Of a stretch of 64,000 nucleotides of DNA, positions 3,029 to 44,689 are shown in pieces. This DNA comes from an uncultured Gammaproteobacteria bacterium (GTDB lineage Bacteria > Patescibacteriota > Patescibacteriia > UBA9934): positions 78,638 through 142,637 of the forward strand of contig CAYVLY010000001.1 in NCBI GenBank assembly GCA_964452565.1, read 5' to 3'. Position 1 is the stretch's first letter; the number at the start of each line of letters is the position of its first letter. A program made the position numbers and the translations under genes. A model generated the notes under the pieces. It ran no database searches. It had not been told where the DNA came from and saw only the letters and a program-made list of their open reading frames with translations.

Positions 3029-3283
3029 CTAGTTGGGGTTGTGGACGGCCACGATTGGTTCTTCGAAGACGGTCCTGTCGTACGGGATCATGAGCTTTGT
3101 TCCGCCCTCCTCTGGAGCCAATACGCAGATAGTGGTTGCAGGCCCATCATGGGCGGTCCGCACCTCCACGTTCTGAGCCATACAGTCGACGCACTGCTTC
3201 GGATGACATCGTATTCGGGTGTTCTCGGCACAGCCTCGCAGGAAGGCCGATACAGCATCTTCACCAGTTATCCATCCAGGCAT
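3029..3283 (-). CDS. Hypothetical small Cys-containing protein (CHPKQCVDC)
   Basis: Strong RBS GGAGGTG 4 nt before the ATG on the minus strand (plus 3288..3294); GC-rich. Confidence 0.35.
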   Translation of the reverse strand: MPGWITGEDAVSAFLRGCAENTRIRCHPKQCVDCMAQNVEVRTAHDGPATTICVLAPEEGGTKLMIPYDRTVFEEPIVAVHNPN

Positions 3284-3332
3284 TATCACCTCCAAGTTAG
3301 TGGCTGGATTCCATACAACGTTATCTTGGTTT

Positions 3333-3360
3333 TTGCTCGTGGTCAATTCTGAGGTATAAT
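3333..3360 (+). promoter_or_regulatory. Sigma70-like promoter TTGCTC-16-TATAAT upstream of the ABC exporter operon
   Basis: TTGCTC 3333..3338, TATAAT 3355..3360, AAGGAG RBS 3391..3396. Confidence 0.5.
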
Positions 3361-3402: not shown

Positions 3403-5268
3403 TTGCTTCTTATGGAAAATAACGAAAATCAGGAGGTTTCGGCTTTGCCTATTGAGCAAAAGCCAAAATCAAAGCTAATGAGCTTTTTAGGACGCCGACG
3501 ATGGTGGATTGTTGGTGTTGTTATTGTTTTACTCATTGCTGGCGGTGTATTGGCAGGAAGAGGGTCAGATGACATTTTTACTTACGCTGAAGTTCAAAAA
3601 GGTGATTTGATTCAGACAGTTGAAGTTTCAGGTGAACTGGAATCTTTCCAAGAGGCAGATTTAGCGTTTGAGATGAGTGGAACTGTTAGCTATGTGTTTG
3701 TAGAGGCTGGAGATGAAGTTGTTGAAGGGCAGATTATAGCTGTACTTGATAGCGGTGAACTTTTGGCAGATCTTTCTGCTGCCCAACAGGCAGCGTACCT
3801 AGCAGACGCAAACCTTGATCAGTTTTTGGCCGGCGCAACAGATCAAGAGATCGCAGCAGCACAAGCAACGCTTGATAGTGCATTGGCAGATCTTGAATCA
3901 AAAACAGAACTTGCAAGTTTAAATGTCGCCGAGGAGCTAGTGGATTTAAATACTTCTGAAGATGATTTGGAAAATACACTTGCAGATAATGAAGAAGATC
4001 TTGAGCAGGTGTATGAAGATCTTGAAAACTTGTTGTTTGGAGCTGTGATTGATGTGCGAAGTGCTTTAAGTGCAGCGGATGAGATCCTTGGAGTAGAAAA
4101 CACACTTCACAATCAAGATTTCAAAAACGTATTATCAGCAACAGATCCGCAACAGTACACTTGGGCAAAGAATTACTATGACTATGCTGCTGATGCACGA
4201 GACGCAGCTGAAGATCTTGTTTATGCATTAACAGTAGATTCAACAGCAGATGAGATCGGCGTAGCTGCAGATAAAGTCGAAGAAGCGCTTGATTACACAT
4301 CCGAGACCCTGCTTTACACTCGACGTGTACTTGATGCGACCAAGTCAGACAGTTCTGATCTTAGCCTGAGCGACATCTCAACCTACAAATCAACCATCGA
4401 TACAGAACGCGACACCATTCAGACCGAGGAAACAAATATTCTTACTCAACGTCAGTTGGTTGATTCAACAGTGATTAGTGCTGACGATGCAGAGGACGCA
4501 GCATATAGCGCAGTTGATTCAGCTGAGTATGACTATTCGCAGGCTGTTTCAAATGCTGATTCAAGTGTTGCAATGGCACAGGCTACTGTTGATCTAAGAC
4601 AGGCAGAATATGATGCACTTACTGTAGAAAAGCGATCTGTTGATACTGCTTCATACTATGCTCAACTTGGACAGGCGCAGGCGCAGCTTGCTGCTGCAGA
4701 AGCACGTTTTGAAAAATCAGAGATCTCAGCTCCGTTTGATGGGATTGTTACCCACATGGACTTAAGCCTTGGAGAACCTGTCACTCTTGGGACAACAGTA
4801 GCTGGAGTCCAGTCAAGCATTGAGCAGTATCGTGTGCTTGTTGATGTTCCTGAAGCAGACATTGTGAAGCTCACATTGGACGATGAGGCTGTAGTTACAT
4901 TTGATGCTTATGGTGATGACGTTGAGGTGCCAGCACGTGTTGGAAAGATCAATCCAGGTGAAAGCGATATCGAAGGTGTTGTGTACTACGGGGTTGAGGT
5001 ATATATAAGTGACGAAGTTGACCTGACTCTTAAATCAGGAATGTCAGCAGATGTAATTGTCACAACAGAAACCAAGTCAGATGTTCTTTATATTCAGCAG
5101 CGTGCTGTTTATGAGTATGATGATGGAACTCGATATGTACGCGTGCCAAAAGGGGATGAATATGAGGAGCAGGTGATAGTAACAGGGCTCCGTGCAGATG
5201 GTGGATATGTTGAGCTGATCTCTGGTCTTGAAGAAGGGGATGAGGTTATTACCGCAATAAATGATTAG
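3403..5268 (+). CDS. HlyD/MacA-family periplasmic adaptor with a very long coiled-coil hairpin
   Basis: N-terminal TM helix, biotinyl/lipoyl-like beta segments flanking ~350 aa of predicted coiled coil, C-terminal beta-barrel motifs; precedes the ABC ATPase and permease. Confidence 0.7.
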   Translation: MLLMENNENQEVSALPIEQKPKSKLMSFLGRRRWWIVGVVIVLLIAGGVLAGRGSDDIFTYAEVQKGDLIQTVEVSGELESFQEADLAFEMSGTVSYVFVEAGDEVVEGQIIAVLDSGELLADLSAAQQAAYLADANLDQFLAGATDQEIAAAQATLDSALADLESKTELASLNVAEELVDLNTSEDDLENTLADNEEDLEQVYEDLENLLFGAVIDVRSALSAADEILGVENTLHNQDFKNVLSATDPQQYTWAKNYYDYAADARDAAEDLVYALTVDSTADEIGVAADKVEEALDYTSETLLYTRRVLDATKSDSSDLSLSDISTYKSTIDTERDTIQTEETNILTQRQLVDSTVISADDAEDAAYSAVDSAEYDYSQAVSNADSSVAMAQATVDLRQAEYDALTVEKRSVDTASYYAQLGQAQAQLAAAEARFEKSEISAPFDGIVTHMDLSLGEPVTLGTTVAGVQSSIEQYRVLVDVPEADIVKLTLDDEAVVTFDAYGDDVEVPARVGKINPGESDIEGVVYYGVEVYISDEVDLTLKSGMSADVIVTTETKSDVLYIQQRAVYEYDDGTRYVRVPKGDEYEEQVIVTGLRADGGYVELISGLEEGDEVITAIND

Positions 5269-5269
5269 T

Positions 5270-5995
5270 ATGTCAGGCAAATCAAAGCCTTTGATCGAGC
5301 TCAAAGATATCTACAAAAATTATGTAAATGACGATGTCGTGACGCGTGTGCTTCGCGGCATCTCTTTGACTATTCAAGAAGGAGAGTTTGTAGCGATCAT
5401 GGGTCCATCTGGCTCTGGAAAGTCAACTTTGATGAACATTTTGGGATTTTTAGATTCTGTTACCTCTGGTGACTATGAGTTTAAGGGTCATAATGTGTCA
5501 GGCCTGAGTGATGATCAAAAGGCGATCATGCGCCGCAAAGAGGTGGGGTTTGTCTTTCAGACGTTTAATCTACTGCCTAGAACATCAGTTTTGGAAAATG
5601 TTACTCTTCCGATGATCTATGAGCGGATTCCTGAAGCAAAGCGTCGTGTAATGGCAAAGAAGGCGCTAAAGACTGTAGGGCTGGAACATCGGCTTGACCA
5701 CCTTTCAAACCAACTCTCTGGAGGTGAGAAGCAGCGCGTAGCTATCGTTCGCGCAGTTGCTAATGATCCAAGCATAGTCTTTGCAGATGAGCCAACAGGA
5801 AACCTTGATACAAAGACAGGCGAGGAGGTTTTAATCATGTTTCAAAAGCTACACAAAAAAGGACGAACGGTCATTATGATTACACACGAGCAAGAGGCTG
5901 CAGAGTTTGCAGAGAGAATCGTATCGATTCGTGATGGAAAGATTGTATCAGACACAACAGGTCATAGCCGACGAACAGGGAGGTTTCATAAATAA
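5270..5995 (+). CDS. ABC transporter ATP-binding protein (MacB/LolD-type)
   Basis: Walker [10 protein letters not shown], signature [14 protein letters not shown], Walker [14 protein letters not shown]-loop ITHE. Confidence 0.85.
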
Positions 5996-7368: not shown

Positions 7369-10263
7369 ATGAAAAAAAGTTTTAACAAAATAATTATGAA
7401 GCGCATAATATCTTTTATTTGGATTTTCGCTTTTTTTGCAAGTGCGATTTTACCAGCAATGCATGTTCAGGCAGCTGACATAGAAGCCACTGCTGGAAGC
7501 CTTGTCAAGAACGAAACCCAATCAGCCGTATATTACTATGGCAGCGACGGAAACAGATACGCCTTTCCTAACGAGAAGGTGTTTTTTACTTGGTACGATG
7601 ATTTTGATGATGTAGTCGAAATTTCAGATGACGATATGGCAGATCTGCCATTGTCCGGGATAGTTACCTATCGGCCGGGAATTCGAATGGTTAAGATTCA
7701 GTCAGTACCAAATGTTTATGCAGTTTCAGCTGGTGCAGTTTTGCACTGGGTAACAACAGAAGAGGTTGCTGAGGCATTGTATGGATCAAGTTGGAATGCA
7801 TACATCGACGATGTATCTGATGCATTCTGGTATCACTATTCATTTGGTGGAGATCTAACACTTTCTAGCGGTTATGATCCAGACGAGGAAGAGTCATCGT
7901 CCGATGATATTGATGATGACCTTGATTTACGAGACGATGATGCAGTAGAGGGCTCACCAGAGGCTCCGACCCTTACAGCCCCTACGTCAGCAGAATCTGG
8001 AGAAGAATTTGATATCACCTGGACAGTTGAAGATGACGCGCTCTATTACTTACTACAAACCTCAACAAATGTCTCTTTCGCAGATGCAGATGAGGAGCAA
8101 TTTTCAAATTATCCAGATTTATCAGATGGAGAAACAACTGACAGCATTACAGAAACCACCTATTACAGGATGAGAGGTGATAATAACATTGGACAGGGCT
8201 CCTGGAGTAATGTTGAGACTGTTGTGATCGACACGGGTGAGGAAGACGAGGACTCTGACGGCGATGAAGACGAAGACGAGGATCCGGATGATGACGAAGA
8301 TCCTGATGAGGATGAAGAGCCCGATGAGGATCCAGACGAAGACGAGGATCCGGATGATGACGAAGATCCCGATGAGGACCCAGTCGACGATGATGACGAC
8401 GATGATGTGGATCCATTTGTGATTATCGAAAATGTACCAGATGGCCAGCAGCCACCAATGAACTCATATGGATATGGAGATACAAATTTCTGTGCTCCTA
8501 TTTCAGCTGCAAACGTCACTGAATATTGGGATGTAGTTATGGGTGAGCCAAATGCTGATCAAGTTGATGCTGATTTATTTGTAGTTGAAACAGTCGCAGA
8601 TTTTATTGGATTCTTCATGAATACTAATGGCATGGGAAGTATTAACCGTGACTTTGGCCTTGGTATGGGAACTCCGATAAGTAATATAGAAGACGGAATT
8701 TTGGATTGGGTTGTTTGGGATGGACTAGATGGAACGCAGTACGGATTTGATGATCCATGGTTTGATCTAGCTGGAAAAGTAGATTACACATCTTGGGATG
8801 TTGAGACACTAGACTTTACTGAGTCCTCAGATACGGATGCCTGGGATGATTATATGGATGAGATTGATGCTGGTAGGCCAACAGTCTTGTCATTTGCATA
8901 TTGGAATCCAAAATTTATAGATGAAGATACTGATCATGATGTTAAATTCTACAGTTGGGGCGATCAGATTTATTCATCTGAGGAGTCAGAGTTTGCACCT
9001 GAATTTAATGAGCCAGAATACTGGTACACAGATTCCTCTCCAAAGTATTCAACAGGGCATTCTGTGACTGGTGTTGGTTATGTTGAAGAATATGATGCTG
9101 GAGACGGATACACACGTGATTGGGCAATTGTGCACGATAACTGGGATACAACTGGAGAAAATGTTGCTATTCCATGGGAAATGTGGACAGCAACCACAAC
9201 AATCGAACCATTGGCTAATGCAGTCCCAGATGTACCAGAGCCATCAGGCCTGCCAGAGATCATGGTTGAAGACGTTTCATATACCCTTGAGTGGGATCAT
9301 GTACAAGGTGCAAAGACATATTGTATTGAGTGGGCAACTAATGAAGATTTTGACGATGCCCTTGCATCATGTGCCTGGAATGGTTATGAGACAACTTATG
9401 ATGTGACTCCTAGCATTGACCTGTGGACAGAAGAGCGGTTCCATAGAGTAAAGGCATGTAATGATATGGGATGTAGTGATTGGAGCGATACAGTTGAGTC
9501 AATAGTATTTTGGGACGATCCAGTTGTAGTTCCAGATGAGTCTGCCACGATTGGAGATGCTTTAAATGCCGTTGATGATTATGGAATCGTATATATTGAA
9601 CCCGGAACATATTATGAGGGTGAATTGTCTCTTCCAACTGGTGTATATCTAGCTGGTGCAGGAATTGATGAGGTAACCATTGATTCAACCGGTAGTTATG
9701 TTGGAGCTTATTGTTCAGATTCATATAATGTTATTCATAGTCTAACGATGACCGGTGCTAGAAGTACGCTTGTGTCATGTGATAACGGTGGCATTACTAT
9801 TCAAAAGTCAGTATTAATTGCAGATAATCAAGAAGGCTGGAATGCTAGTGGTGTCTATGCAGCTAATGGAGCCTATGTTGGTCTTTATAATGTTACTGTG
9901 GCAGCTCCAACTTACGGCGATAACGGGGTTATCACAGATACAGATAGTGATAATTATGTGTACGTCTACAACTCAATAATAGAAGGATTCACGCAAGGAA
10001 TATTTATACAGGGAGGTTTATTTATCGGTGATTATAATGATGTAAATGGGCCATATGGTGAAAGAAACTGGTATGGATATGCAACCCCAGGTGCCAATTC
10101 AATAACTGCTGATCCGTTATTCGTGGATCCTGCTGGGCATGATTTCCATTTAGATCCTGCATCTCCGTGTGTTGATGCTGGAGATCCAGAGGCTTGGTAT
10201 GCCGATGAGGATGGAACTATGAATGACATGGGAGCTTATGGAGGAACATTGATGGGGGATTAG
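7369..10263 (+). CDS. Secreted multidomain protein: signal peptide, poly-Asp/Glu repeat linker, papain-like Cys peptidase-like domain, Fn3-like domain, C-terminal right-handed beta-helix
   Basis: Signal peptide MKKSFNKIIMKRIISFIWIFAFFASAILPAMHVQA; Cys motif NFCAPISAAN, His motif GHSVTGVGY, DNWD in papain order; parallel beta-helix repeats and ..DPLFVDPAGHDFHLDPASPCVDAG.. tail. Confidence 0.75.
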   Translation: MKKSFNKIIMKRIISFIWIFAFFASAILPAMHVQAADIEATAGSLVKNETQSAVYYYGSDGNRYAFPNEKVFFTWYDDFDDVVEISDDDMADLPLSGIVTYRPGIRMVKIQSVPNVYAVSAGAVLHWVTTEEVAEALYGSSWNAYIDDVSDAFWYHYSFGGDLTLSSGYDPDEEESSSDDIDDDLDLRDDDAVEGSPEAPTLTAPTSAESGEEFDITWTVEDDALYYLLQTSTNVSFADADEEQFSNYPDLSDGETTDSITETTYYRMRGDNNIGQGSWSNVETVVIDTGEEDEDSDGDEDEDEDPDDDEDPDEDEEPDEDPDEDEDPDDDEDPDEDPVDDDDDDDVDPFVIIENVPDGQQPPMNSYGYGDTNFCAPISAANVTEYWDVVMGEPNADQVDADLFVVETVADFIGFFMNTNGMGSINRDFGLGMGTPISNIEDGILDWVVWDGLDGTQYGFDDPWFDLAGKVDYTSWDVETLDFTESSDTDAWDDYMDEIDAGRPTVLSFAYWNPKFIDEDTDHDVKFYSWGDQIYSSEESEFAPEFNEPEYWYTDSSPKYSTGHSVTGVGYVEEYDAGDGYTRDWAIVHDNWDTTGENVAIPWEMWTATTTIEPLANAVPDVPEPSGLPEIMVEDVSYTLEWDHVQGAKTYCIEWATNEDFDDALASCAWNGYETTYDVTPSIDLWTEERFHRVKACNDMGCSDWSDTVESIVFWDDPVVVPDESATIGDALNAVDDYGIVYIEPGTYYEGELSLPTGVYLAGAGIDEVTIDSTGSYVGAYCSDSYNVIHSLTMTGARSTLVSCDNGGITIQKSVLIADNQEGWNASGVYAANGAYVGLYNVTVAAPTYGDNGVITDTDSDNYVYVYNSIIEGFTQGIFIQGGLFIGDYNDVNGPYGERNWYGYATPGANSITADPLFVDPAGHDFHLDPASPCVDAGDPEAWYADEDGTMNDMGAYGGTLMGD
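8237..8415 (+). repeat. Tandem ~66-bp repeat encoding an EDEDPDDDEDPDEDEEPD acidic low-complexity linker
   Basis: Unit gacgaagacgaggatccggatgatgacgaagatccNgatgagga repeated from 8269 and 8335. Confidence 0.8.
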
Positions 10264-10291
10264 ATGATTCAAATACAATTGAAATAGCATA

Positions 10292-10320
10292 CCGCCCGGT
10301 CCATCGAATGGACCGGGCGG
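10292..10320. terminator. Bidirectional terminator: 12-bp perfect stem CCGCCCGGTCCA-tcgaa-TGGACCGGGCGG
   Basis: Lies between convergent genes 7369..10263 (+) and 10344..11081 (-). Confidence 0.7.
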
Positions 10321-10343
10321 TTCGTTGTACGTCGGTATAGCGG

Positions 10344-11081
10344 CTAGGCCTCGAATTCACCGAGTGTCTTGAGGCATTGGGTCAGGTGGTTCTTGATCGC
10401 GGCTTGGTCGAGGATGAAGCCATGATCTCCATAGACACGATGCACAGTCACGTCCTGGTCACAGTACTTGGCATCGTAGTAGAACAGGTCGTTGTGAGGG
10501 ACGACTGCGACCACAGGGCACTTCAGTGGGCCGGTATTGCCGTGGAAGAAGGGCAAGGGAACCAGCCTCAGGCAGCAGCGCATGGGCTCGGGGCGTACGA
10601 TCTCGATGAGTTCCCGAGCCTTTCTGCTGGAATGGGCTTCGCCACGCTGCTCCCAGTTGAAGAAGGCCCTCCGGATCCTATCGAGGTTGTCGAGTGTCAC
10701 GTTGCCGGCGAAGAACCCGCGGAAGAATTCCCAGGGGATCGTCAGTACGCCGCGGACGTAGCCCCAGAAGGGCAGGCCGTACTGCGTAGTGGCTGCGAGC
10801 AGGATCACACTACTGAAGAGCTTGGGATTGTGGCGCGCGAGACGGCGGAGTGGAACGCCACCCATGGAGTAGGCGATTCCGATCACACCCTCGGTGATGC
10901 CTTCGTCGCCGAGCTGCTGCTTGCACGCGTCGACCATCTCGCGGACAGTGGTACCCTTGTAGCGCATGATGATCACGCGGTAGTCGCGGTCCGTGAAGAA
11001 TTCGATCACGAACTTGAGCCAGAGCTCAACGACTCCGCGGCTCCAGGCGCCAGGGAAAAGAACAACAGTCTTCTGCTTCAT
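10344..11081 (-). CDS. Alpha/beta-hydrolase fold protein (GxSxG nucleophile elbow GIAYSMGG)
   Basis: AAGGAG RBS 6 nt before ATG (MKQKTVVLFPG); GYSMGG motif, C-terminal His (GDHGF); GC-rich codons. Confidence 0.65.
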   Translation of the reverse strand: MKQKTVVLFPGAWSRGVVELWLKFVIEFFTDRDYRVIIMRYKGTTVREMVDACKQQLGDEGITEGVIGIAYSMGGVPLRRLARHNPKLFSSVILLAATTQYGLPFWGYVRGVLTIPWEFFRGFFAGNVTLDNLDRIRRAFFNWEQRGEAHSSRKARELIEIVRPEPMRCCLRLVPLPFFHGNTGPLKCPVVAVVPHNDLFYYDAKYCDQDVTVHRVYGDHGFILDQAAIKNHLTQCLKTLGEFEA

Positions 11082-11189
11082 CTTTGGCTCCTTCTGGTCC
11101 ATCCTTGGACCTGCCAGCTTGGGCGTCATGCCCTTTCTCGAAGCCGAGTACTACACCATGATTAGCGACTTTTGTCAATTAAAACATAA

Positions 11190-11220
11190 AAAACTACTAA
11201 CGTTTAACGTTGGTAGTTTT
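11190..11220. promoter_or_regulatory. 31-bp near-perfect palindrome AAAACTACTAACGTT-T-AACGTTGGTAGTTTT between divergent -35 boxes
   Basis: TTGACA on the minus strand (plus 11174..11179) and TTGACA on the plus strand (11222..11227) flank the palindrome symmetrically; candidate operator shared by divergent genes. Confidence 0.6.
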
Positions 11221-11284
11221 ATTGACATATTCGGCTAATCACAGTACATTTCGTTCTTGTCCCATCACTTGAAAGGAGACTCTC

Positions 11285-12160
11285 TTGAGTGCAACTACAC
11301 TTCTTGTCCTGTTGGCAATGGCGCTCTTCGGGGGCTTTGCTGATGCATTCCGAAAGGTCGTGCTCGGGAAGCTCGGTCTGTATTCAACTGTGGGGTTCAT
11401 CTATCTGGGTTTTGCATTGCCCTTTGGAATCGCCTTCATGATCGTCACCAGAACATATCCGATCATTACTAGCAGTCTGATTGTGGCACACATGACTGCA
11501 CTTCCATTTGTCGGCCTGACAGTGGTTCTGTTCTACAGTGCGTTGCAGAAGACGGACTTCTCGATTTCTGCATCCATCTTCGGATTGGCGCCAGCAACTG
11601 CCATGATTGGAGAGTGGATTATTGGACGTTCCGAGCCAAGCTGGGCTGGAGCGCTTGGGATCCTCGTTGTGTCACTCGGTGCTTATATCCTTCATCTAGA
11701 CGCCTTCAAACATGGGCCGCTGACGCCGTTCAAACGGTTGCTCAAGGATCGGGGCGCCAGGCACGCACTTTACGCAGTGATTGCTATCGCGATCGCTATT
11801 CCATTCCAGCGTGAGGCTGTCTGTGTCTCCAAGAGTCCCGGATTCTGGATGGTCGTGGAGTCGAGCCTATGCATTCCGTTCCTGCTCTTTGGGGTGATCA
11901 AGGAGCGCGCCAAATGGCAGGTCACCACACAAACCAGGCTTTTCACCTTAGGCGCCGGGTCCATGTGGAGTATACATGGGATTTTGCTCTACACGGGTCT
12001 TCAGCTCACGCTCGGTGGATATGTCATGGCCATGCGTTCGTTGGCACTACTAGTCGGCTTCACGCTCGCTTACTTGATCCTCAGGGAAAAGGTGCGTTCG
12101 CGTATTCCTGGAATGCTTGTGATCATCATCGGAACGTTCGTGATCTCGCTCCTGGCTTGA
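11285..12160 (+). CDS. EamA/DMT-superfamily transporter (10 predicted TM helices)
   Basis: TTG start with GGAGA RBS; two repeated 5-TM halves; GC-rich. Confidence 0.65.
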   Translation: MSATTLLVLLAMALFGGFADAFRKVVLGKLGLYSTVGFIYLGFALPFGIAFMIVTRTYPIITSSLIVAHMTALPFVGLTVVLFYSALQKTDFSISASIFGLAPATAMIGEWIIGRSEPSWAGALGILVVSLGAYILHLDAFKHGPLTPFKRLLKDRGARHALYAVIAIAIAIPFQREAVCVSKSPGFWMVVESSLCIPFLLFGVIKERAKWQVTTQTRLFTLGAGSMWSIHGILLYTGLQLTLGGYVMAMRSLALLVGFTLAYLILREKVRSRIPGMLVIIIGTFVISLLA

Positions 12161-12185
12161 TCGCATCAGGTAGCCTCACCTCGGT

Positions 12186-12207
12186 CCTCCCTTGCGGAGG
12201 GCTTTTT
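12186..12207 (+). terminator. Hairpin CCTCCC-ttgc-GGAGGG + CTTTTTG, immediately followed by TTGACG
   Basis: Stem-loop plus T-run after the transporter gene. Confidence 0.55.
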
Positions 12208-12288
12208 GCTTGACGCAATGCTGGAAAAACGCTAACTTTCAAATGTCGCACGGAGCGGCAATAAGTAAATAGGAAGGGAAGTGAGAGA

Positions 12289-12738
12289 ATGGATCCGACT
12301 ACATGGATATGCGCTGCCGTAGCTGGCTTGTTCATCCTGTGGCTGATCGCGAAGGTCGTCAGCAAGCAGCAGACACGGTGGCGTCTTTCTCGCCCGATCA
12401 GCGCGTTCGATAGCTCTGCAGATAAGCTCCTGATCGAGGGTACGATCACGTCTGCGCGTGGCCGAGTTGTTGATACTGGGGAATATCGAAGTATCGGCCC
12501 TGGTGATCTTGCACCAGACATCGCTACATTCTGGACCTATAAGGTGCAGCTCAGCGATGGCACTACAGAGATCGTTCCAGGTATCCGTGAGAGTGTTCGG
12601 AAAAGGAGGGGTCTGCCAAACGACAACTCGGTCGGGCATGTCGCAGTCCTGTTCCTGCGCCGACGTGTCTTCTTCAGACAGAGGTGGGTCCGCTGGAAGT
12701 TGCAGGCCTGGAGCCACGAGGCAATACGCCTAGACTAG
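12289..12738 (+). CDS. Hypothetical membrane-anchored protein
   Basis: GGAAGGGAAG RBS before ATG, N-terminal TM helix; an antisense ORF of similar length looks spurious. Confidence 0.4.
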   Translation: MDPTTWICAAVAGLFILWLIAKVVSKQQTRWRLSRPISAFDSSADKLLIEGTITSARGRVVDTGEYRSIGPGDLAPDIATFWTYKVQLSDGTTEIVPGIRESVRKRRGLPNDNSVGHVAVLFLRRRVFFRQRWVRWKLQAWSHEAIRLD

Positions 12739-12926
12739 CACAGGGATCCTGCCGCACATCGTCGTTCAAGTTCGGCTCACACAGCCGGGCTTTTTGCTTT
12801 GTTGTAGTTTTATTTATCCACATTGACAAAAAGTAGATTTACCCCATGTTTCGGGCATAGGGGCCAGCACCCGGTGCTGGACATGAAATGTGATATAATT
12901 GCGCGCGATAATGAGTTACATCTTTT

Positions 12927-16319: not shown

Positions 16320-16332
16320 AAAAGAAATAAAA

Positions 16333-16358
16333 AACTCTCGACTTCGGTCGGGAGTTTT
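16333..16358 (+). terminator. Hairpin AACTCTCGAC-ttcg-GTCGGGAGTT + TTTTATTTT
   Basis: 10-bp stem with one G-U pair, T-run. Confidence 0.6.
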
Positions 16359-24022: not shown

Positions 24023-24097
24023 GGCCCTATCGTCTAGCGGCTAGGACGCCGCCCTCTCACGGCGGAAACCCGGGTTCGATTCCCGGTAGGGTCACCA
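24023..24097 (+). tRNA. tRNA-Glu (anticodon CTC), encoded CCA
   Basis: Cloverleaf: acceptor ggcccta/tagggtc, anticodon stem ccgcc/ggcgg with loop ctCTCac, T-arm cgggttcgattcccg; promoter TTGCTT-16-TATACT at 23979..24006. Confidence 0.85.
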
Positions 24098-24100
24098 ATA

Positions 24101-24126
24101 AGAAAGCCACCGTAAGGTGGCTTTCT
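24101..24126 (+). terminator. Hairpin AGAAAGCCACC-gtaa-GGTGGCTTTCT + tattgg
   Basis: 11-bp perfect stem directly after the tRNA. Confidence 0.6.
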
Positions 24127-25448: not shown

Positions 25449-25465
25449 TAGGGTCACCAATAAGA
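25449..25465 (+). repeat. 17-bp exact direct repeat of the tRNA-Glu 3' end plus 6 downstream nt (TAGGGTCACCAATAAGA), att-like
   Basis: Identical to 24087..24103; followed by terminator hairpin AGACCGCAGG-atatac-CCTGCGGTCT (25463..25488), analogous to the hairpin after the tRNA. Confidence 0.65.
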
Positions 25466-28847: not shown

Positions 28848-28888
28848 TTGACACAAAGAAATTAGCACTCTATAATGCAGAGTGCTAA
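28848..28888 (+). promoter_or_regulatory. Sigma70 promoter TTGACA-17-TATAAT with a perfect CIRCE operator TTAGCACTC-N9-GAGTGCTAA overlapping the -10
   Basis: TTGACA 28848..28853; CIRCE 28862..28888 with TATAAT (28871..28876) inside the 9-nt spacer. Confidence 0.85.
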
Positions 28889-28898
28889 TTTTATTTCT

Positions 28899-29594
28899 GT
28901 GTTAAACGAACGTCAGCTAAAAATTCTATCAGCAATCGTTGAAGAGTATGTGGCCACTGCACAACCTGTTGCTTCGCGTACATTGGTAAACAAGTACGCG
29001 TTTTCTGTTTCTCCGGCAACAATACGAAACGATATGGTTTTGCTTGAATCAGAAGGGCTTCTGCGTCAGCCACACACGTCTGCAGGACGCGTTCCAACCG
29101 AGGAAGGTTATCGAATCTATCTTGAGACCTTTGTAAAGCGTTCACGATCAAATCGAACTAGCACACAAATGCAGCAAGCTGTTGAGCAGGCACAAACACC
29201 GCGTCAGTTAGTTCGTGAGATGGCTCAATGTCTGACTCGACTATCTGGAGAGACTGCAGTCGCATCACTAGACACCGGGTGGAATCACTACACCGGAATA
29301 TCGAAGTTATTTGATAAGCCTGAGTTTAGTGATGTAGCAACACTGCGTGCACTTTCAAGTGTGGTTGATGGTTTTGATCAGACTCTTCGCGATATCTTTG
29401 GCGACATTGAAGATGACGTGAACATTTGGATTGGTGGAGAGAATCCGTTTGGAGAGCAGATCGCAACAATGATGGTTAAGTATCGATTACCAAACGGAAT
29501 GATCGGAACACTTGGACTTATCGGCCCAATGCGAATGAATTATGAAAAAAATATCTGCTTGCTTGAGCAGGCTAAAGACATATTAGATGCTTAG
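28899..29594 (+). CDS. hrcA: Heat-inducible transcription repressor HrcA
   Basis: N-terminal winged-helix RQLKILSAIVEEYVATAQPVASRTL; start moved to GTG 28899 because ATG 28875 lies inside the -10/CIRCE. Confidence 0.8.
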   Translation: MLNERQLKILSAIVEEYVATAQPVASRTLVNKYAFSVSPATIRNDMVLLESEGLLRQPHTSAGRVPTEEGYRIYLETFVKRSRSNRTSTQMQQAVEQAQTPRQLVREMAQCLTRLSGETAVASLDTGWNHYTGISKLFDKPEFSDVATLRALSSVVDGFDQTLRDIFGDIEDDVNIWIGGENPFGEQIATMMVKYRLPNGMIGTLGLIGPMRMNYEKNICLLEQAKDILDA

Positions 29595-29596
29595 AT

Positions 29597-30145
29597 ATGA
29601 AGAAGGATAAAAGTAAAAAGTTGAAAGATCAAAGTCGAGTAGATTCTTCGGCTGCGCCTCAGAATGACACTTCCACTTGTCATCCTGAACGGAGTGAAGG
29701 ATCTACTGAGTGCGAGAAGTGCGCCGAGTACTTAGCGGGCTGGAAACGCGCGCTGGCAGATTATGAGAATATGAAGGCAGATATTGATAAGGTCAGATCT
29801 CATAATCGCGATCAGATCAAGATCGACCTAGCGCTAAGCCTCTTGCCTGTGATGGACAACTTCGATCAGGCTGTAAGTCATGCGCCAGAAGCGTCAGATG
29901 CTATCGAAACTTGGCTTCAGGGTGTAAAGTTCATCAAAAAGCAGTTTGAGGATGTATTTGAGGAGATGGGACTGGAGATGATCGATACTTCGATCGAATT
30001 CGATCATAATCTACATGAAGCGGTAGAAGAGCGCGAAGAAAAGGGGTCAGACCCGGGAAGGATCATAGAAGTTCAACAAACCGGCTGGAAGATTGGGTAT
30101 CGAATACTAAGGCCGGCTAAGGTGATAATAAATAAATTAAAATAA
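29597..30145 (+). CDS. grpE: Nucleotide exchange factor GrpE
   Basis: GrpE motifs WKRALADYENMK..LLPVMDNFDQAV; position between hrcA and dnaK. Confidence 0.85.
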   Translation: MKKDKSKKLKDQSRVDSSAAPQNDTSTCHPERSEGSTECEKCAEYLAGWKRALADYENMKADIDKVRSHNRDQIKIDLALSLLPVMDNFDQAVSHAPEASDAIETWLQGVKFIKKQFEDVFEEMGLEMIDTSIEFDHNLHEAVEEREEKGSDPGRIIEVQQTGWKIGYRILRPAKVIINKLK

Positions 30146-30147
30146 TT

Positions 30148-30268
30148 GTCATCCTGAGCGAGTCGATTCGTCGCCGGCCGTCGCTAAAGCTATGGCCGGT
30201 CCGCCGAAGCTTTATGCGAAGGCGGAAAGGATCCCTGTAAGAGATTTCTCGGCTTCGCTCGGAATGAC
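30148..30268. repeat. GC-rich palindromic repeat element, family GTCATCC..GAGCGAG..GGGATCC..GGATGAC (copy A)
   Basis: Terminal inverted repeats gtcatcctgagcgagtcga / tcggcttcgctcggaatgac; internal GC hairpins; related copies at 32270, 38105, 50290, 53258, 56754, 58560, 60537. Confidence 0.65.
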
Positions 30269-30295
30269 GAAGAATAAATAAAACAATAAAAACAT

Positions 30296-32269
30296 ATGCC
30301 AAAGATTCTAGGAATTGATTTAGGAACTACAAACTCAGCTATGGCTGTGATGGAGGGTGGTTCACCAAAGATCCTTGAGAACAAAGAAGGATCACGCACA
30401 ACACCTTCAATGGTGGCGGTTACAAAGAATAATGAGCGCTTGGCTGGAACACCTGCAAAGCGTCAAGCTGTTACAAACCCAAAAGATACACTCTTTTCGA
30501 TCAAACGACTTATCGGACGAAGATTCAATGATGAAGAGGTTAAGTATGACATGGAGCACATGCCATATGAGATTGTTGCACGTGGAGAAGGTGTGGGTAT
30601 CAAAATGGGTGATAAGGAATACACACCGCAGCAGGTTGGTGCAATGGTTTTGCAAAAGATGAAAGCAGATGCTGAGGAAAAGACTGGTGAGACAATCACA
30701 GAAGCAGTGATCACGGTTCCTGCTTACTTTGATGATGCACAGCGACAAGCTACAAAGGATGCAGGTGAGATTGCAGGGCTTAAGGTCCTCCGAATCATCA
30801 ACGAGCCAACTGCGGCCGCACTCGCTTATGGATTTGATAAAAAGGTTGGTCAGCAAGTTCTGGTGTACGATCTAGGTGGTGGAACTTTTGACGTGTCAGT
30901 GCTCGACGTATCTGAAAATACCGTTGAGGTTCTATCAACCAATGGTGACACTCACCTTGGAGGAGATGACTTTGATAAGGCGATTATCGACTGGATTATC
31001 ATGGAGTTTAAGGCGCAAGAAGGTGTAGATCTTTCTGGAGACCCACTTGCTATGCAACGTGTAAAAGACGCAGCAGAGCGGGCTAAGATTGAGTTATCCA
31101 CAGCAGCACAAACTGAGATCAATCAACCATTCATTACTTCAGGAGCAGAAGGGCCAAAACACTTGGTTATGACTTTGACACGCGCAAAGCTTGAGGAGCT
31201 AATTATGCCGCTTGTTGAAAAGACTCTTGAGCCAGTTAAGAAAGCACTTAACGATGCAAAGCTTCAACCGTCAGACATCGAAGAGATCATCTTGGTTGGA
31301 GGGATGACACGAATGCCAGTGATCGGAAAGAAAGTAGAAGAGTTTTTCAGTAAGAAGCCAAATGCGACTGTAAACCCAGATGAAGTTGTTGCAATGGGTG
31401 CAGCAATCCAGGCTGGTGTTCTTCAAGGTGATGTTAAGGATGTGCTGTTGCTTGATGTGACTCCACTGTCTCTCGGAATCGAAACTATGGGTGGAGTGTT
31501 TACAAAGCTTATCGAGAGAAACACAACAATTCCTACAACCAAGAGTCAAATCTTTTCTACTGCAGCTGATAGTCAGCCTTCTGTTGAAATTAAAGTTTAC
31601 CAAGGTGAGCGTCAGATGGCTGCTGACAACAAGGTTCTTGGACGGTTCATGTTGGACGGAATCCCACCAGCACCACGAGGAGTTCCACAGATCGAAGTTA
31701 GTTTCGATATCGATGCGAACGGAATCCTTAATGTTTCTGCAAAAGATAAGGGAACTGGTAAGGAGCAGAAGATTACCATTCAGGCATCTTCAGGATTGTC
31801 GGACGAAGAGGTTGAAAAGATGAAGCAGGATGCAGAGGCTCATGCTGATGAGGATAAAAAGAAAAAAGAGAGCGTAGAAGTTAAAAATGTTGCAGATACC
31901 ATGGTGTATACTGCAGAGAAGATGCTGATCGATGGTAAGGACAAAATCGACGAGGCTGAAGCAAAGAATGTTCAAGAAAAGATTGACGCTCTTAAAGACG
32001 TTAAGGATAGTGAAGATATTGAAAAGATCAAAGCTGTGTCTGAAGAACTATCAAAGGTTGCTCAGGAAGTTGGAGCAAAGATGTATCAAGCTGAGCAGGC
32101 AGAACAGAACCCAGAAGCCAGTACCCAGAACCCAGCCGAAGGTCACGAGCAAAGTCGAGGGGAAGGCGACGACGTAAAAGACGCGGATTTTGAGGAGGTG
32201 AAAGAGGAAAAGAAGGACGAAGGCGCTGACGCCGCTGATCAAACTGATCAAGGATCGGAAAATAAATAA
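30296..32269 (+). CDS. dnaK: Chaperone DnaK (Hsp70)
   Basis: [18 protein letters not shown], full Hsp70 architecture. Confidence 0.95.
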
Positions 32270-32342
32270 CCCCTCTCGTCCATCCCGACGTGAGGAGGGA
32301 TCCCGGCCGGGCTGACGCATTTATCGCCCGGCCGTCGATCTG
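32270..32342. repeat. GC-rich palindromic repeat element (copy B) with catcccgacgtgaggagggatcc core and 9-bp CGGCCGGGC/GCCCGGCCG hairpin
   Basis: Shares a 23-nt motif with the copy at 38105..38255. Confidence 0.6.
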
Positions 32343-32353
32343 ATTAACCCACC

Positions 32354-32563
32354 ATGCATATGTTTAGTAAGAAAGAAAAACCAAAAAGGAATATATTGCT
32401 TCGGCTTGTAATCGGAGTAGGTTCGTTTGTGATGTGGCTACTTAGCTTTAAGGCCGTTCGATCCTGGATTTGGAAACGAGTTGAGTCAAAAGGTAGAGAA
32501 AAGATAATCGATGCGAAAGCAAAGGTTGTAGAAAAAAGTGAGAAAAAGAGATTTTTAAAGTAG
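32354..32563 (+). CDS. Hypothetical small membrane protein
   Basis: ORF with one TM; between dnaK and dnaJ. Confidence 0.3.
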   Translation: MHMFSKKEKPKRNILLRLVIGVGSFVMWLLSFKAVRSWIWKRVESKGREKIIDAKAKVVEKSEKKRFLK

Positions 32564-32565
32564 TT

Positions 32566-32988
32566 ATGGTCTTAAGTAATGTAAAAAAATTCCTAAAGCC
32601 ACACCGTCTATTGCTTTTATCAATGGCTGTTTTTGCTGTTGCTATATGGCTGGCAATGCATATTTTATTGGATAACCTATGCCTTGTTCCATACTGTAAC
32701 CAATACGATCATTTTTGGCTTGCATGGGTCCTTATCCCAATAATGGTTGTGATAGCCATTTTCTCGATACCAATTTTAATTGCATTTGGAATTTGTCACT
32801 TTCTGTACATGTCTTTTGGTTACCAGGATATGACGATTTGGGCTTGGGTGATGGTGAAAATGTATGATATTGGATTCATGAATGTCAGAGAGATATTATC
32901 CATTTTAATATCGGTATTTGGAGGGGTTATATATGGTGGTATTTTCTATTCGATTGTAAGCATTCCAATAAAAAAGATGCGTAAATAA
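32566..32988 (+). CDS. Hypothetical 4-TM membrane protein
   Basis: ORF, hydrophobic; between dnaK and dnaJ. Confidence 0.4.
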   Translation: MVLSNVKKFLKPHRLLLLSMAVFAVAIWLAMHILLDNLCLVPYCNQYDHFWLAWVLIPIMVVIAIFSIPILIAFGICHFLYMSFGYQDMTIWAWVMVKMYDIGFMNVREILSILISVFGGVIYGGIFYSIVSIPIKKMRK

Positions 32989-33009
32989 TGATTTTGGAAT
33001 GAAGTAGCT

Positions 33010-34065
33010 ATGAGCAAAGACTATTACAAGATTTTAGGGGTGGAAAAGGGTGCGGATAAGAATGAGATCAAGCGTGCTTTTAGGAAACTTGCGCATGAGC
33101 ATCATCCAGATAAGGGTGGTGATCAGGATAAGTTCAAGGAGATAAATGAGGCGTATCAAGTTTTATCAGATGATACTAAGCGATCGCAGTACGATCAGTT
33201 TGGTTCTACTTTTGATCAAGCTGGTGGTGCTGGCGGATTTGGTGGGTTTGGTGGTCAGGGATTCTCTGGTCAAGGCATGAACTTTGAAGATCTTGGAGAT
33301 ATGTTCTCAGGTATGTTTAGTAGAGGCGGAGGTCGATCAAGACGTGCACAAGGATCTCATATCCAAGTCGACATGCAGCTAAGCTTCAAAGAAGCTGTGT
33401 TTGGTGTTGAAAAGGAAATCCAAGTATCAAAAAATAATAGTTGTGATCGTTGTGGTGGTGTTGGATCAGAGCCAGGCAGTTCAATGAAGACCTGTTCGAC
33501 ATGTTCAGGATCAGGAGTTCAAGAGAAAGTTCAGCAGACTATTCTTGGGTCGATCAAAGCTAGAACTGCTTGTGAGTCATGCCAGGGACGCGGAGAGGAA
33601 CCAGAAGATCCATGTTCGACCTGCGGAGGAAGCGGAATGGAATATGGAAAAAAGTCATTACGCGTTGAAGTTCCTGCAGGAGTCGATAATGGTATGAAGA
33701 TCCGCGTGCGCGGTCAGGGCGAGTCTATTGGCGCTTCTGGCGTTGCAGGTGATCTTTACGTAGTTTTGTATGTTAAGCCTGACCCAAGGTTTGAACGCGT
33801 TGGAGAGCATATTTATACGCATCACAAGATTGGATTCACACAAGCGGCATTAGGTGATGAGGTTTCGATTGAAACGCTTAATGGAAAAGTAAAGCTAAAG
33901 GTTCCGTCAGGAACCCAGAGCAGTGATAAGCTTCGGTTGCGAGGTAAAGGTGTGCCAAAGGCGCGAGGTCGTGGAGATATGATTGTTGTAGTTCAAGTTG
34001 TAACGCCAAAGAAGGTTTCGAGGAAACAAAAGAAGCTGTTGGGAGAGTTAGACCTAAAAGAATAA
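33010..34065 (+). CDS. dnaJ: Chaperone DnaJ
   Basis: J-domain HPD motif, Gly/Phe-rich region, four CxxCxGxG zinc-finger repeats. Confidence 0.9.
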   Translation: MSKDYYKILGVEKGADKNEIKRAFRKLAHEHHPDKGGDQDKFKEINEAYQVLSDDTKRSQYDQFGSTFDQAGGAGGFGGFGGQGFSGQGMNFEDLGDMFSGMFSRGGGRSRRAQGSHIQVDMQLSFKEAVFGVEKEIQVSKNNSCDRCGGVGSEPGSSMKTCSTCSGSGVQEKVQQTILGSIKARTACESCQGRGEEPEDPCSTCGGSGMEYGKKSLRVEVPAGVDNGMKIRVRGQGESIGASGVAGDLYVVLYVKPDPRFERVGEHIYTHHKIGFTQAALGDEVSIETLNGKVKLKVPSGTQSSDKLRLRGKGVPKARGRGDMIVVVQVVTPKKVSRKQKKLLGELDLKE

Positions 34066-44533: not shown

Positions 44534-44689
44534 AGTCCACCATCCGTTCGTATCAGCGACCCATCTCTGGGTCGCTGAAGTGCTTTTCAAAAACCACTAA
44601 TTTTTGCAAAATATTTATCAACAACTATTGACAAAAGGCCATTTTTATGCTAAAGTTATTGTGTTAACTTAATCTTAAAATATATTTAT

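Follow-up and report, generated by a model that had tools for sequence, protein, structure and literature searches.

The window analysed here is a 64,000-nucleotide stretch of contig CAYVLY010000001.1, and the element of interest within it is a 31-bp palindrome that lies between two divergently transcribed genes: an alpha/beta-hydrolase-like gene on the minus strand and an EamA/DMT transporter gene on the plus strand. With a third open reading frame (ORF) of 149 aa, these genes make up a GC-rich island in the order macB/ftsX, island, gene for a 115-aa protein, secD/secF. Relatives of the 115-aa neighbour gene place the locus in Candidatus Uhrbacteria, within the Patescibacteria or Candidate Phyla Radiation (CPR). 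It had been assumed, in a first reading of the sequence (the original prediction), that the palindrome is an operator through which a single dimeric repressor controls both genes. We shall argue that it is probably not a sequence-specific operator common to the hydrolase and transporter genes, and that it may instead be a terminator-type hairpin in the non-coding frame of a slot that holds exchangeable foreign genes. The positions of the features are collected in Table 1.

The foreign composition of the island genes is real. The GC content at third codon positions (GC3) is 0.78, 0.62 and 0.63 for the hydrolase, the transporter and the 149-aa ORF, respectively, against 0.36 +/- 0.04 for 22 core ORFs, so that the divergent, GC3-rich arrangement described earlier stands. 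The best start of the hydrolase gene is the ATG at 11081, which has AGGAG 6 nt upstream; the ATG at 11129 is less likely. Its product matches the Pfam family Abhydrolase_6 at 8e-5, a value under the Pfam cut-off for the window protein, and 13 of 31 family members match. It carries the motif AYSMGG, and an alignment of 31 sequences contains the nucleophile elbow, the acid and the histidine, with Ser72 nearly invariant and Asp198 and His220 invariant; the family profile also matches PDB entry 5a62 at 5e-8. On the strength of these resemblances, the minus-strand ORF encodes a distant alpha/beta hydrolase, a member of a rare family for which 1.84 billion proteins yielded 38 representatives. The AlphaFold model of the window protein is poor, with a predicted local distance difference test (pLDDT) score of 57. 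The assignment of the transporter is more direct, with a match to Pfam PF00892 (EamA) at 2e-11, 44.7 bits against a cut-off of 28.2, in two matched stretches. Exact-protein look-ups of the hydrolase and the transporter in the protein collection found neither. In the case of the hydrolase, the protein is missing from the collection, and the look-up failed, because an antisense ORF was called instead: gene calling on the public Logan assembly (run SRR8146441) picked the shadow ORF at 2101-2826 of locus L001, which corresponds to window positions 10440-11165 on the plus strand.

The island contains more than had been described, namely a terminator behind the DMT gene and the 149-aa ORF, for which there is no family match and whose exact sequence is recorded for the window's genome alone. 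Domain scans gave no indication that any of the island ORFs (the hydrolase, the EamA transporter or the 149-aa membrane ORFan) resembles a DNA-binding protein, in agreement with the earlier statement that the island lacks a regulator, and they revealed no recombinase, integrase or transposase gene in the island or the slot. An Rfam scan of the window returned three tRNAs and nothing else. The strong hairpins that were said to bound the island are both there (10291-10321 and 12768-12792), although the left one is the slot's own terminator.

Table 1. Positions of the palindrome, genes and regulatory features of the island and of the promoter-like sites in the window.
Feature	Position	Strand	Remarks
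Slot terminator hairpin ('term1')	10291..10321		ACCGCCCGGTCCA-loop-TGGACCGGGCGGT; perfect 14-bp stem, -29.4 kcal/mol
Alpha/beta-hydrolase-like gene, 245 aa	10344..11081	-	GC3 0.78
5' leader of slot	11082..11143	-	GGGCATGACGCCCAAGCTG, then hairpin GGTCCAAGGATGGACC, then ribosome-binding site AGGAG 11092..11088
Hydrolase (slot) promoter	11150..11178	-	-35 TTGACA 11178..11173, 17-nt spacer, -10 TGTAGT 11155..11150; read from sequence
Mirror-image promoter pair	11159..11241		GCTAATCA 6 nt 3' of each -35: 11166..11159 (-), 11234-11241 (+)
31-bp palindrome AAAACTACTAACGTT-T-AACGTTGGTAGTTTT	arms 11190-11204 / 11206-11220	none	15+1+15, one mismatch
11-bp direct repeat GTAGTTTTATT	11213..11223 and 12804..12814	+	flanks the DMT + 149-aa segment
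DMT promoter	11222..11250	+	-35 TTGACA 11222-11227, 17-nt spacer, -10 TACATT 11245-11250; promoter scan
EamA/DMT transporter gene, 291 aa	11285..12160	+	TTG start, AGGAG 11274-11278, GC3 0.62
DMT terminator	12183..12203	+	terminator scan, fold; a similar one follows the L010 DMT gene
13-bp direct repeat GGGCTTTTTGCTT	12199..12211 and 12787-12799	+	100% identical, flanks the 149-aa unit
Putative promoter of 149-aa ORF	12210..12238	+	TTGACG 12210-12215, 17-nt spacer, TAACTT 12233-12238; inferred from sequence
149-aa ORF	12289..12738	+	GC3 0.63, N-terminal hydrophobic segment
Terminator of 149-aa ORF	12768..12792	+	terminator scan, fold
TTATCCACA (DnaA-box consensus), then TTGACA	12814..12828	+	TTATCCACA-TTGACAAAA module extends to 12831
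TTGACA-N17-TANNNT sites	1281, 2249, 11222, 28848, 41976(-), 44628, 54553(-)

The palindrome is present as first described, with complementarity at 14 of the 15 positions of its arms; the lone mismatch, T11198/G11212, forms a G.U pair on the plus strand. Block shuffles of the window almost never yield a dyad of this quality. As RNA, the plus strand folds at -15.9 kcal/mol (z -5.2 against its shuffles) and the minus strand at -11.1 kcal/mol (z -3.4); as single-stranded DNA, the values are -10.8 and -8.9 kcal/mol on the two strands. Together with its surroundings the element reads AAAAAA-CTACTAACG-TTTAA-CGTTGGTAG-TTTTATT, that is, it has the A-tract on the 5' side and the T-tract on the 3' side that are looked for in a terminator. 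These flanks, AAAAAACT (ATAAAAAACT in a longer reading) and AGTTTTATT, are also those of the genome's own secF terminator at 16331-16358, the hairpin of which has an energy of -16.8 kcal/mol, to be set against the plus-strand RNA of the palindrome. In related genomes, the secF terminators keep their flanks and vary in their stems, and in the relatives' loci they are the next-best matches to the palindrome. The succession of A-tract, stem and T-tract is common to most long palindromes of the window. Palindromes of this form are ordinary terminators, and the finding as first stated is not remarkable.

The context in which the palindrome has to be seen is provided by related loci. Scans of genome and metagenome collections with the 115-aa protein gave 13 loci, among which there was no closer relative bearing the palindrome; a look-up of the 115-aa protein gave no strain variants. 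The order of macB/ftsX, island, 115-aa gene and secD/secF is syntenic across the related loci, and what varies is the content between ftsX and the 115-aa gene. The slot contains a hydrolase alone in L002 and L008 (69% and 53% identity), a second type of hydrolase alone in L027 and L028, and a second-type hydrolase (38% identity) with a DMT gene in L010, the product of which (P0004) is an orthologue of 69% identity and likewise 291 aa. L011 and L018 have an unrelated 90-aa Cys-rich ORF in the same place, L020 a hydrolase plus an inserted sigma-70/ECF-like gene (371-997), and L023 a hydrolase pseudogene (3609-4290). Differing cargo is in this way found within one frame at seven or eight related loci. 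The GC content of the cargo ORFs is 55-62%, against about 42% for the genomes, the exception being the sigma-70-like gene of L020 (48% GC). Across loci, identity is 72-86% for the 115-aa protein and 38-69% for the hydrolases.

Conservation of the minus-strand unit is seen in three of its non-coding parts, the TTGACAAAA promoter, the leader and the terminator hairpin, and extends to loci with an unrelated ORF. The promoter, composed of TTGACAAAA, 17 nt and a -10 box, is kept in all eight of the distinct related loci read; TTGACAAAA with its 17-nt spacer is named in L002, L008, L020, L010 and L011 in the alignment, and also in L027 and L028. The leader motif GGGCA..GCCCA(A)GCTG aligns in the window, L002, L010 and L011, the last of which retains it despite its unrelated ORF, and is weaker in L008 and L020. 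The second hairpin of the leader, just before the ribosome-binding site, differs in sequence at every locus, and folding of an alignment of five leaders recovered a 4-bp helix alone; the leader may nevertheless be a cis-regulatory one. The stem of the slot terminator, CCGCCCGGTCCA-loop-TGGACCGGGCGG, is identical in the window, L002, L010 and L011 despite the differing cargo, and in L027 a 1-bp insertion in one arm is compensated in the other. The secF terminator stems vary freely in the genomes that share this identical stem, and the contrast suggests either a constraint on the slot terminator at the level of sequence or a recent spread of the frame.

Each of the TTGACA boxes beside the palindrome lies, as the original prediction supposed, in a credible promoter, and both promoters are kept in relatives. 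The symmetry that it described, however, does not hold, in that the gap between palindrome and -35 box is 11 nt on the left (hydrolase) and 1 nt on the right (DMT), and the minus-strand box is at 11178..11173 rather than 11179..11174. The layout of the DMT promoter is also found in L010, as TTGACT-17-TACTTT. In the window, TTGACA-N17-TANNNT occurs seven times against 0.74 expected; all seven sites are intergenic and the DMT promoter is among them. Five drive GC-rich cargo ORFs, and the others are the hrcA promoter (28848) and the site at 44628, which lies just 3' of a GC-rich ORF at 44.2-44.6 kb. This Uhrbacteria genome appears to use canonical sigma-70 promoters. The palindrome is upstream of both -35 boxes and covers no -10 box, no -35 box and no inferred transcription start; with the starts placed from the promoter boxes, its centre would be at about -52 for the DMT gene and about -62 for the hydrolase gene.

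The most informative comparison is with L027, a locus that has the other type of hydrolase and no DMT gene. There, a hairpin CAAACTACCAACCCC-T-GGGGTTGCTCGTTTT lies 10 nt from the slot -35 box (11 nt in the window) and aligns to the palindrome without gaps at 22 of 36 positions; no other part of the 10.8-kb locus matches the palindrome better, and the hairpin is at the syntenic position and was flagged as terminator-like by the scan. Of the 15 pairs of the palindrome, eight are unchanged in L027, one has a one-sided change and still pairs, three have changed on both sides and still pair, and the three broken ones are outer pairs. The two-sided changes are those of the three innermost pairs (GC to CG, TA to CG and TA to CG). 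The covariation that would be expected of a terminator is observed, albeit between two homologous sequences and with low statistical power. Since the centre has changed on both sides in L027 and yet remains complementary, self-complementarity is what is kept. On this comparison, the conserved feature is taken to be a self-complementary element at a fixed place by the slot promoter, with or without a DMT gene. Among all the loci fetched, L027 alone matches the palindrome, the sequence of which is absent from L010, L002, L008, L011 and L028. Two of these loci do have a hairpin in the region: an unrelated one, AAAAAGTAGGGGTC-T-GACCCCTTGTTTTT, is just upstream of the DMT -35 box in L010, and another unrelated one, TTTAGGCTTAGCC-CAAAT-GGCTAAGCCTAAA, is 3 nt from the slot -35 box in L011. 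Both have A-tract and T-tract flanks and occupy the same spacer, such that position and structure recur and sequence does not.

The explanation that we favour, with a confidence that falls somewhat short of even, is that the palindrome is a terminator-type hairpin in the non-coding frame of a Uhrbacteria cargo slot that extends from macB/ftsX to the 115-aa gene and secDF, where it would serve as a terminator-like insulator. The slot would comprise the terminator hairpin at 10291-10321, the leader with its TTGACAAAA promoter and, between these, a GC-rich minus-strand ORF that can be exchanged and is here the hydrolase; several genomes would add to this another hairpin, flanked by an A-tract and a T-tract and situated some 10 nt upstream of the -35 box, and in the window this hairpin is the palindrome. 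Acting in both directions, such a hairpin could keep transcription that leaks past the slot terminator, antisense across the cargo, from the plus-strand units, and could do the reverse.

Several observations weigh against this explanation. The stem is AT-rich, with G-C at four of 15 paired positions, and is weaker than the genome's other terminators; the terminator scan of the window did not call it. Its complementarity reaches to a 1-nt centre, which a hairpin does not need. It sits between two divergent -35 boxes rather than at the 3' end of a transcription unit, and neither of the mapped promoters transcribes it; the read-through transcripts that it would stop are hypothetical. No hairpin is found at that place in L002, L008 and L028, from which it follows that the element is dispensable. 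Finally, the outer left half-site AAACTACYAAC is common to the window and L027, as a protein-binding site would also explain.

A probable course of events can also be given for the way in which the transporter gene came to lie beside the hairpin. We envisage two successive insertions at the hairpin's T-tract, first of the DMT unit and later of the 149-aa unit, which would have left the 11-bp and 13-bp direct repeats. The sequence GTAGTTTTAT occurs twice in the window, at 11213 and 12804, and the left copy of GTAGTTTTATT starts in the palindrome's right arm, of which it covers the end, and continues through the T-tract into the first TT of the DMT -35 box. Each unit starts with GAC(A/G) right after the TT of the repeat; the insertion junctions would in this way create the -35 box of each unit, TT/GACA for the DMT unit and TT/GACG for the 149-aa unit. 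The DMT -35 box would then abut the palindrome because the DMT unit was inserted at the T-tract. The TTATCCACA-TTGACA module at 12814 can be read as the old right-hand partner of the hydrolase -35 box. There are several observations on this point: TTATCCACATTGACAAA is also present in L002, which is without a DMT gene; the segment 12804-12831 is 75% complementary to 11170-11197; and removal of both units in silico leaves the palindrome exactly 11 nt from a TTGACA on either side, that of the hydrolase promoter and that of the TTATCCACA-TTGACAAAA module. The distance between the two boxes is 56 nt in L002 against 53 nt in the reconstruction. We also considered whether 11170-11197 and 12804-12831 might be the 28-bp arms of a transposon or miniature inverted-repeat transposable element (MITE). 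This was rejected: L002 lacks a DMT gene and yet has the hydrolase -35 arm as well as TTATCCACATTGACAAA, at a distance of 46 nt, and because both are present there, the arms are resident promoter modules rather than the ends of an element.

A more general proposal, which we regard as doubtful, is that Uhrbacteria possess a slot bracketed by hairpins, in which the TTGACAAAA promoter, the GGGCA..GCCCAAGCTG leader and the CCGCCCGGTCCA/TGGACCGGGCGG terminator are fixed, unrelated GC-rich foreign ORFs are swapped between them, and self-promoted units are added at the T-tract of the outer hairpin. The palindrome would be both this outer boundary hairpin and the target for insertion, and no recombinase is recognisable.

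The alternative that survives best, although we consider it unlikely, is that the palindrome is an operator for a dimeric transcription factor encoded in trans. Such a protein would clash with sigma region 4 at the DMT -35 box, whereas at about -62 of the hydrolase promoter it might give weak repression or activation of the class I type. A near-perfect dyad between divergent genes, ending 1 nt short of the DMT -35 box, is what would be expected of an operator, and there is some conservation that is consistent with one: the outer half-sites are largely kept between the window and L027 (ACTACYAAC on the left, GTTG..GTTT on the right), as is the offset of 10-11 nt from the slot -35 box that puts the centre near -62. 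Moreover, the mirror-image promoter pair is conserved in patches: the palindrome arms, the -35 boxes and GCTAATCA have been retained but not the intervening stretches, a pattern that points to discrete motifs under constraint. It is also clear that the genome does use palindromic operators, an example being CIRCE (controlling inverted repeat of chaperone expression) with HrcA. Nevertheless, the dyad is absent from L010, the sole other locus with both a hydrolase and a DMT gene, and this largely refutes the idea that it is conserved with the gene pair; conversely, it is present in L027 without the DMT gene and so is no device for coupling the two. Although the window and L027 have different sequences in the 7-nt centre, each is self-complementary there, the chance of which is about 1 in 64 per locus; a spacer that is not contacted by protein would need no such self-complementarity. 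The island has no regulator gene, and HrcA is the sole DNA-binding regulator among the approximately 35 window ORFs scanned. The search for further half-sites that had been proposed gave no second copy of either the dyad or the half-site in the 64-kb window, about a tenth of the 709,517-bp genome, and no excess of half-sites. Taken with the absence of overlap with the -10 box or the transcription start of either promoter, these results speak against the single repressor on a shared operator that the original prediction envisaged.

A second alternative, which we judge distinctly unlikely, is that the palindrome is a functionless by-product. In this case an inverted duplication of the hydrolase promoter, or a template switch, would have supplied the DMT promoter, and correction of the quasi-palindrome would have kept the centre complementary. 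There is indeed mirror symmetry over about 45 nt on each side: the DMT promoter is a mirror copy of the hydrolase promoter, each having TTGACA, 6 nt and then GCTAATCA, a sequence found nowhere else in the window beyond these two copies, and the alignment of the two sides outside the palindrome is equalled by one of 300 shuffles. Complementarity to the very centre is typical of an origin by template switching, and since the DMT promoter of L010 is no mirror of its neighbour, the mirror layout is specific to this lineage. The region is also recombinationally busy in relatives, as seen from the sigma-like gene of L020, the MITE-like element of L028 and the pseudogene of L023. It is difficult, however, to reconcile such an origin with L027, which shows that the hairpin is older than, and independent of, the DMT promoter, or with the recurrence of hairpins at that place in L010 and L011. 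A single neutral duplication would also be expected to decay evenly, which is not what is seen: 14 of the inner 15 nt match, and one of the 6 nt beside each -35 box. The weakest alternative, a speculation that we think improbable, is that the palindrome acts as DNA, either as a cruciform that absorbs negative supercoiling between the divergent promoters or as a hairpin target for the insertion and exchange of cargo; it would fit an AT-rich 31-bp palindrome with a 1-nt centre that folds as single-stranded DNA on both strands, lies exactly between the two promoters and contains in its right arm the start of the 11-bp repeat around the DMT and 149-aa segment, and against it stand the lack of a recombinase, integrase or transposase gene in the island or slot, the lack of an integron-type core site and the differences in hairpin sequence among genomes.

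Some known elements were also considered as identities for the palindrome. It does not match CIRCE, nor the consensus sequences of the LexA, Fur, NrdR and CtsR sites. A dif/Xer site was rejected, there being no Xer-like arms; GC skew is positive across the window and the terminus is not in it. An integron attC site was likewise rejected, with no integrase in or near the island and no pair of core sites (GTTRRRY and its inverse) in the palindrome. A scan of viral contigs with the core of the dyad gave two matches at chance level, one apparently in coding sequence and one upstream of a phage terminase gene, and the same contigs gave no matches to the slot terminator.

Other features of the slot in the window and in relatives deserve mention. 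At 1560-1815, L028 contains a MITE-like element that is about 270 bp long, is bounded by 18-bp terminal inverted repeats (ACAGGGTCAGGTCTTTAC) and has further copies of these repeats inside it. As judged from this element, the insertion in L020 and the pseudogene in L023, this intergenic spot is unstable in relatives. In L011, GGCTAAGC(C) or its complement recurs at 5787-5925, between the promoters of the slot and of the 115-aa gene, in at least five copies and in both orientations; these may form an array of binding sites, or they may constitute a small repeat element. In the window, a very acidic 964-aa protein with a signal peptide and host-like GC content is encoded at 7369-10263, between ftsX and the slot terminator. 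This protein is absent at that position in L002, L008 (=L012), L010, L011 and L027, and its gene is presumably a further lineage-specific insertion at the hotspot.

Repeats and promoter modules also occur around other units in the window. There are six copies of TTATCCACA, against 0.56 expected, at 2967, 12814, 54069 and 54592 and, inside genes, at 31094 and 46277; four of the six are at the borders of GC-rich cargo units. A 10-bp direct repeat, TTATCCACAG, surrounds the GC-rich unit at 54.08-54.59 kb, which has a 91-aa ORF (GC3 0.87), its own promoter and two terminators; the repeat has the appearance of a duplicated target or attachment site. Two tandem copies of a module, at 1230-1290 and 2198-2256, are found in the first GC-rich island, each composed of a hairpin AACCCCGYGCCGCTGGTGCGGGGTT, about 24 nt and CTTGACAAA. 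Each is followed by its own GC-rich ORFan (1373-2092 and 2323-2625, respectively), and a third ORFan is on the minus strand (3029-3346); Pfam gives no match to any of the three. A 17-nt direct repeat, TAGGGTCACCAATAAGA, is found at 24087-24103 and 25449-25465, where it comprises the 3' end of tRNA-Glu and the following bases, with a long hairpin after each copy. The 1.36-kb segment between the copies has one 325-aa ORF without a Pfam match and looks like a small element integrated at the tRNA.

The sole recognisable operator in the window is a perfect CIRCE at 28862-28888, which lies inside a TTGACA-N17-TATAAT promoter (within 28848-28891) and across the -10 box of hrcA. By its sequence and position, this site is a textbook heat-shock operator in a CPR genome. 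Downstream of it (28875-34065) are hrcA (Pfam), a 182-aa ORF, a 657-aa ORF and then dnaJ (Pfam); the two ORFs are at the positions expected for grpE and dnaK and are tentatively assigned as such by position. The true start of hrcA is probably further downstream, because the listed start at 28875 overlaps the -10 box.

The locus provides a worked example in which what looks like a textbook "shared operator" is more probably the outcome of terminator-style hairpins and the insertion of cassettes. Canonical TTGACA-N17-TAnnnT promoters, together with terminators of the A-tract/T-tract form, make the regulatory regions of this CPR genome readable. The more interesting lead is the conserved frame of promoter, leader and terminator around exchangeable GC-rich ORFs, which rests on about eight loci. 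If such a frame were general in streamlined Patescibacteria, it would bear on how small genomes take up new functions.

Comparison with known systems is instructive. Intrinsic (rho-independent) bidirectional terminators, such as the genome's own secF terminator, resemble the palindrome in the order of A-tract, stem-loop and T-tract, in flanks and energy, and in having a stem that varies between genomes. Unlike a terminator of the secF type, the palindrome lies between divergent -35 boxes and has an AT-rich stem and a 1-nt centre, and it is a putative terminator. Operators of the tetR-tetA type are found in the intergenic regions of divergent regulator and transporter genes. The likeness to these is a long inverted repeat in a short divergent intergenic region beside a transporter gene; the palindrome differs in having no adjacent regulator and no overlap with a -10 box, -35 box or start, and in that its sequence is not kept in the orthologous gene pair. 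The CIRCE/HrcA system shares with it a long, near-perfect inverted repeat in a promoter region, but CIRCE (TTAGCACTC-N9-GAGTGCTAA) covers the hrcA -10 box and has the regulator gene adjacent, features that the palindrome lacks. Integron cassettes and their attC sites are comparable in that units of a single ORF are bounded by imperfect palindromes; the slot has neither an integrase nor a GTTRRRY core, and it differs too in that each unit has its own promoter and the boundary hairpins are terminator-like. Genomic islands and horizontal gene transfer are documented in Patescibacteria (PMC12455944), and the slot resembles a genomic-island hotspot in having strain-variable cargo of aberrant GC content between core genes, here macB/ftsX and secDF. 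It differs from such hotspots in that there is no integrase or tRNA at the slot, and in that the promoter, the leader and the terminator stay in place while the ORF between them changes.

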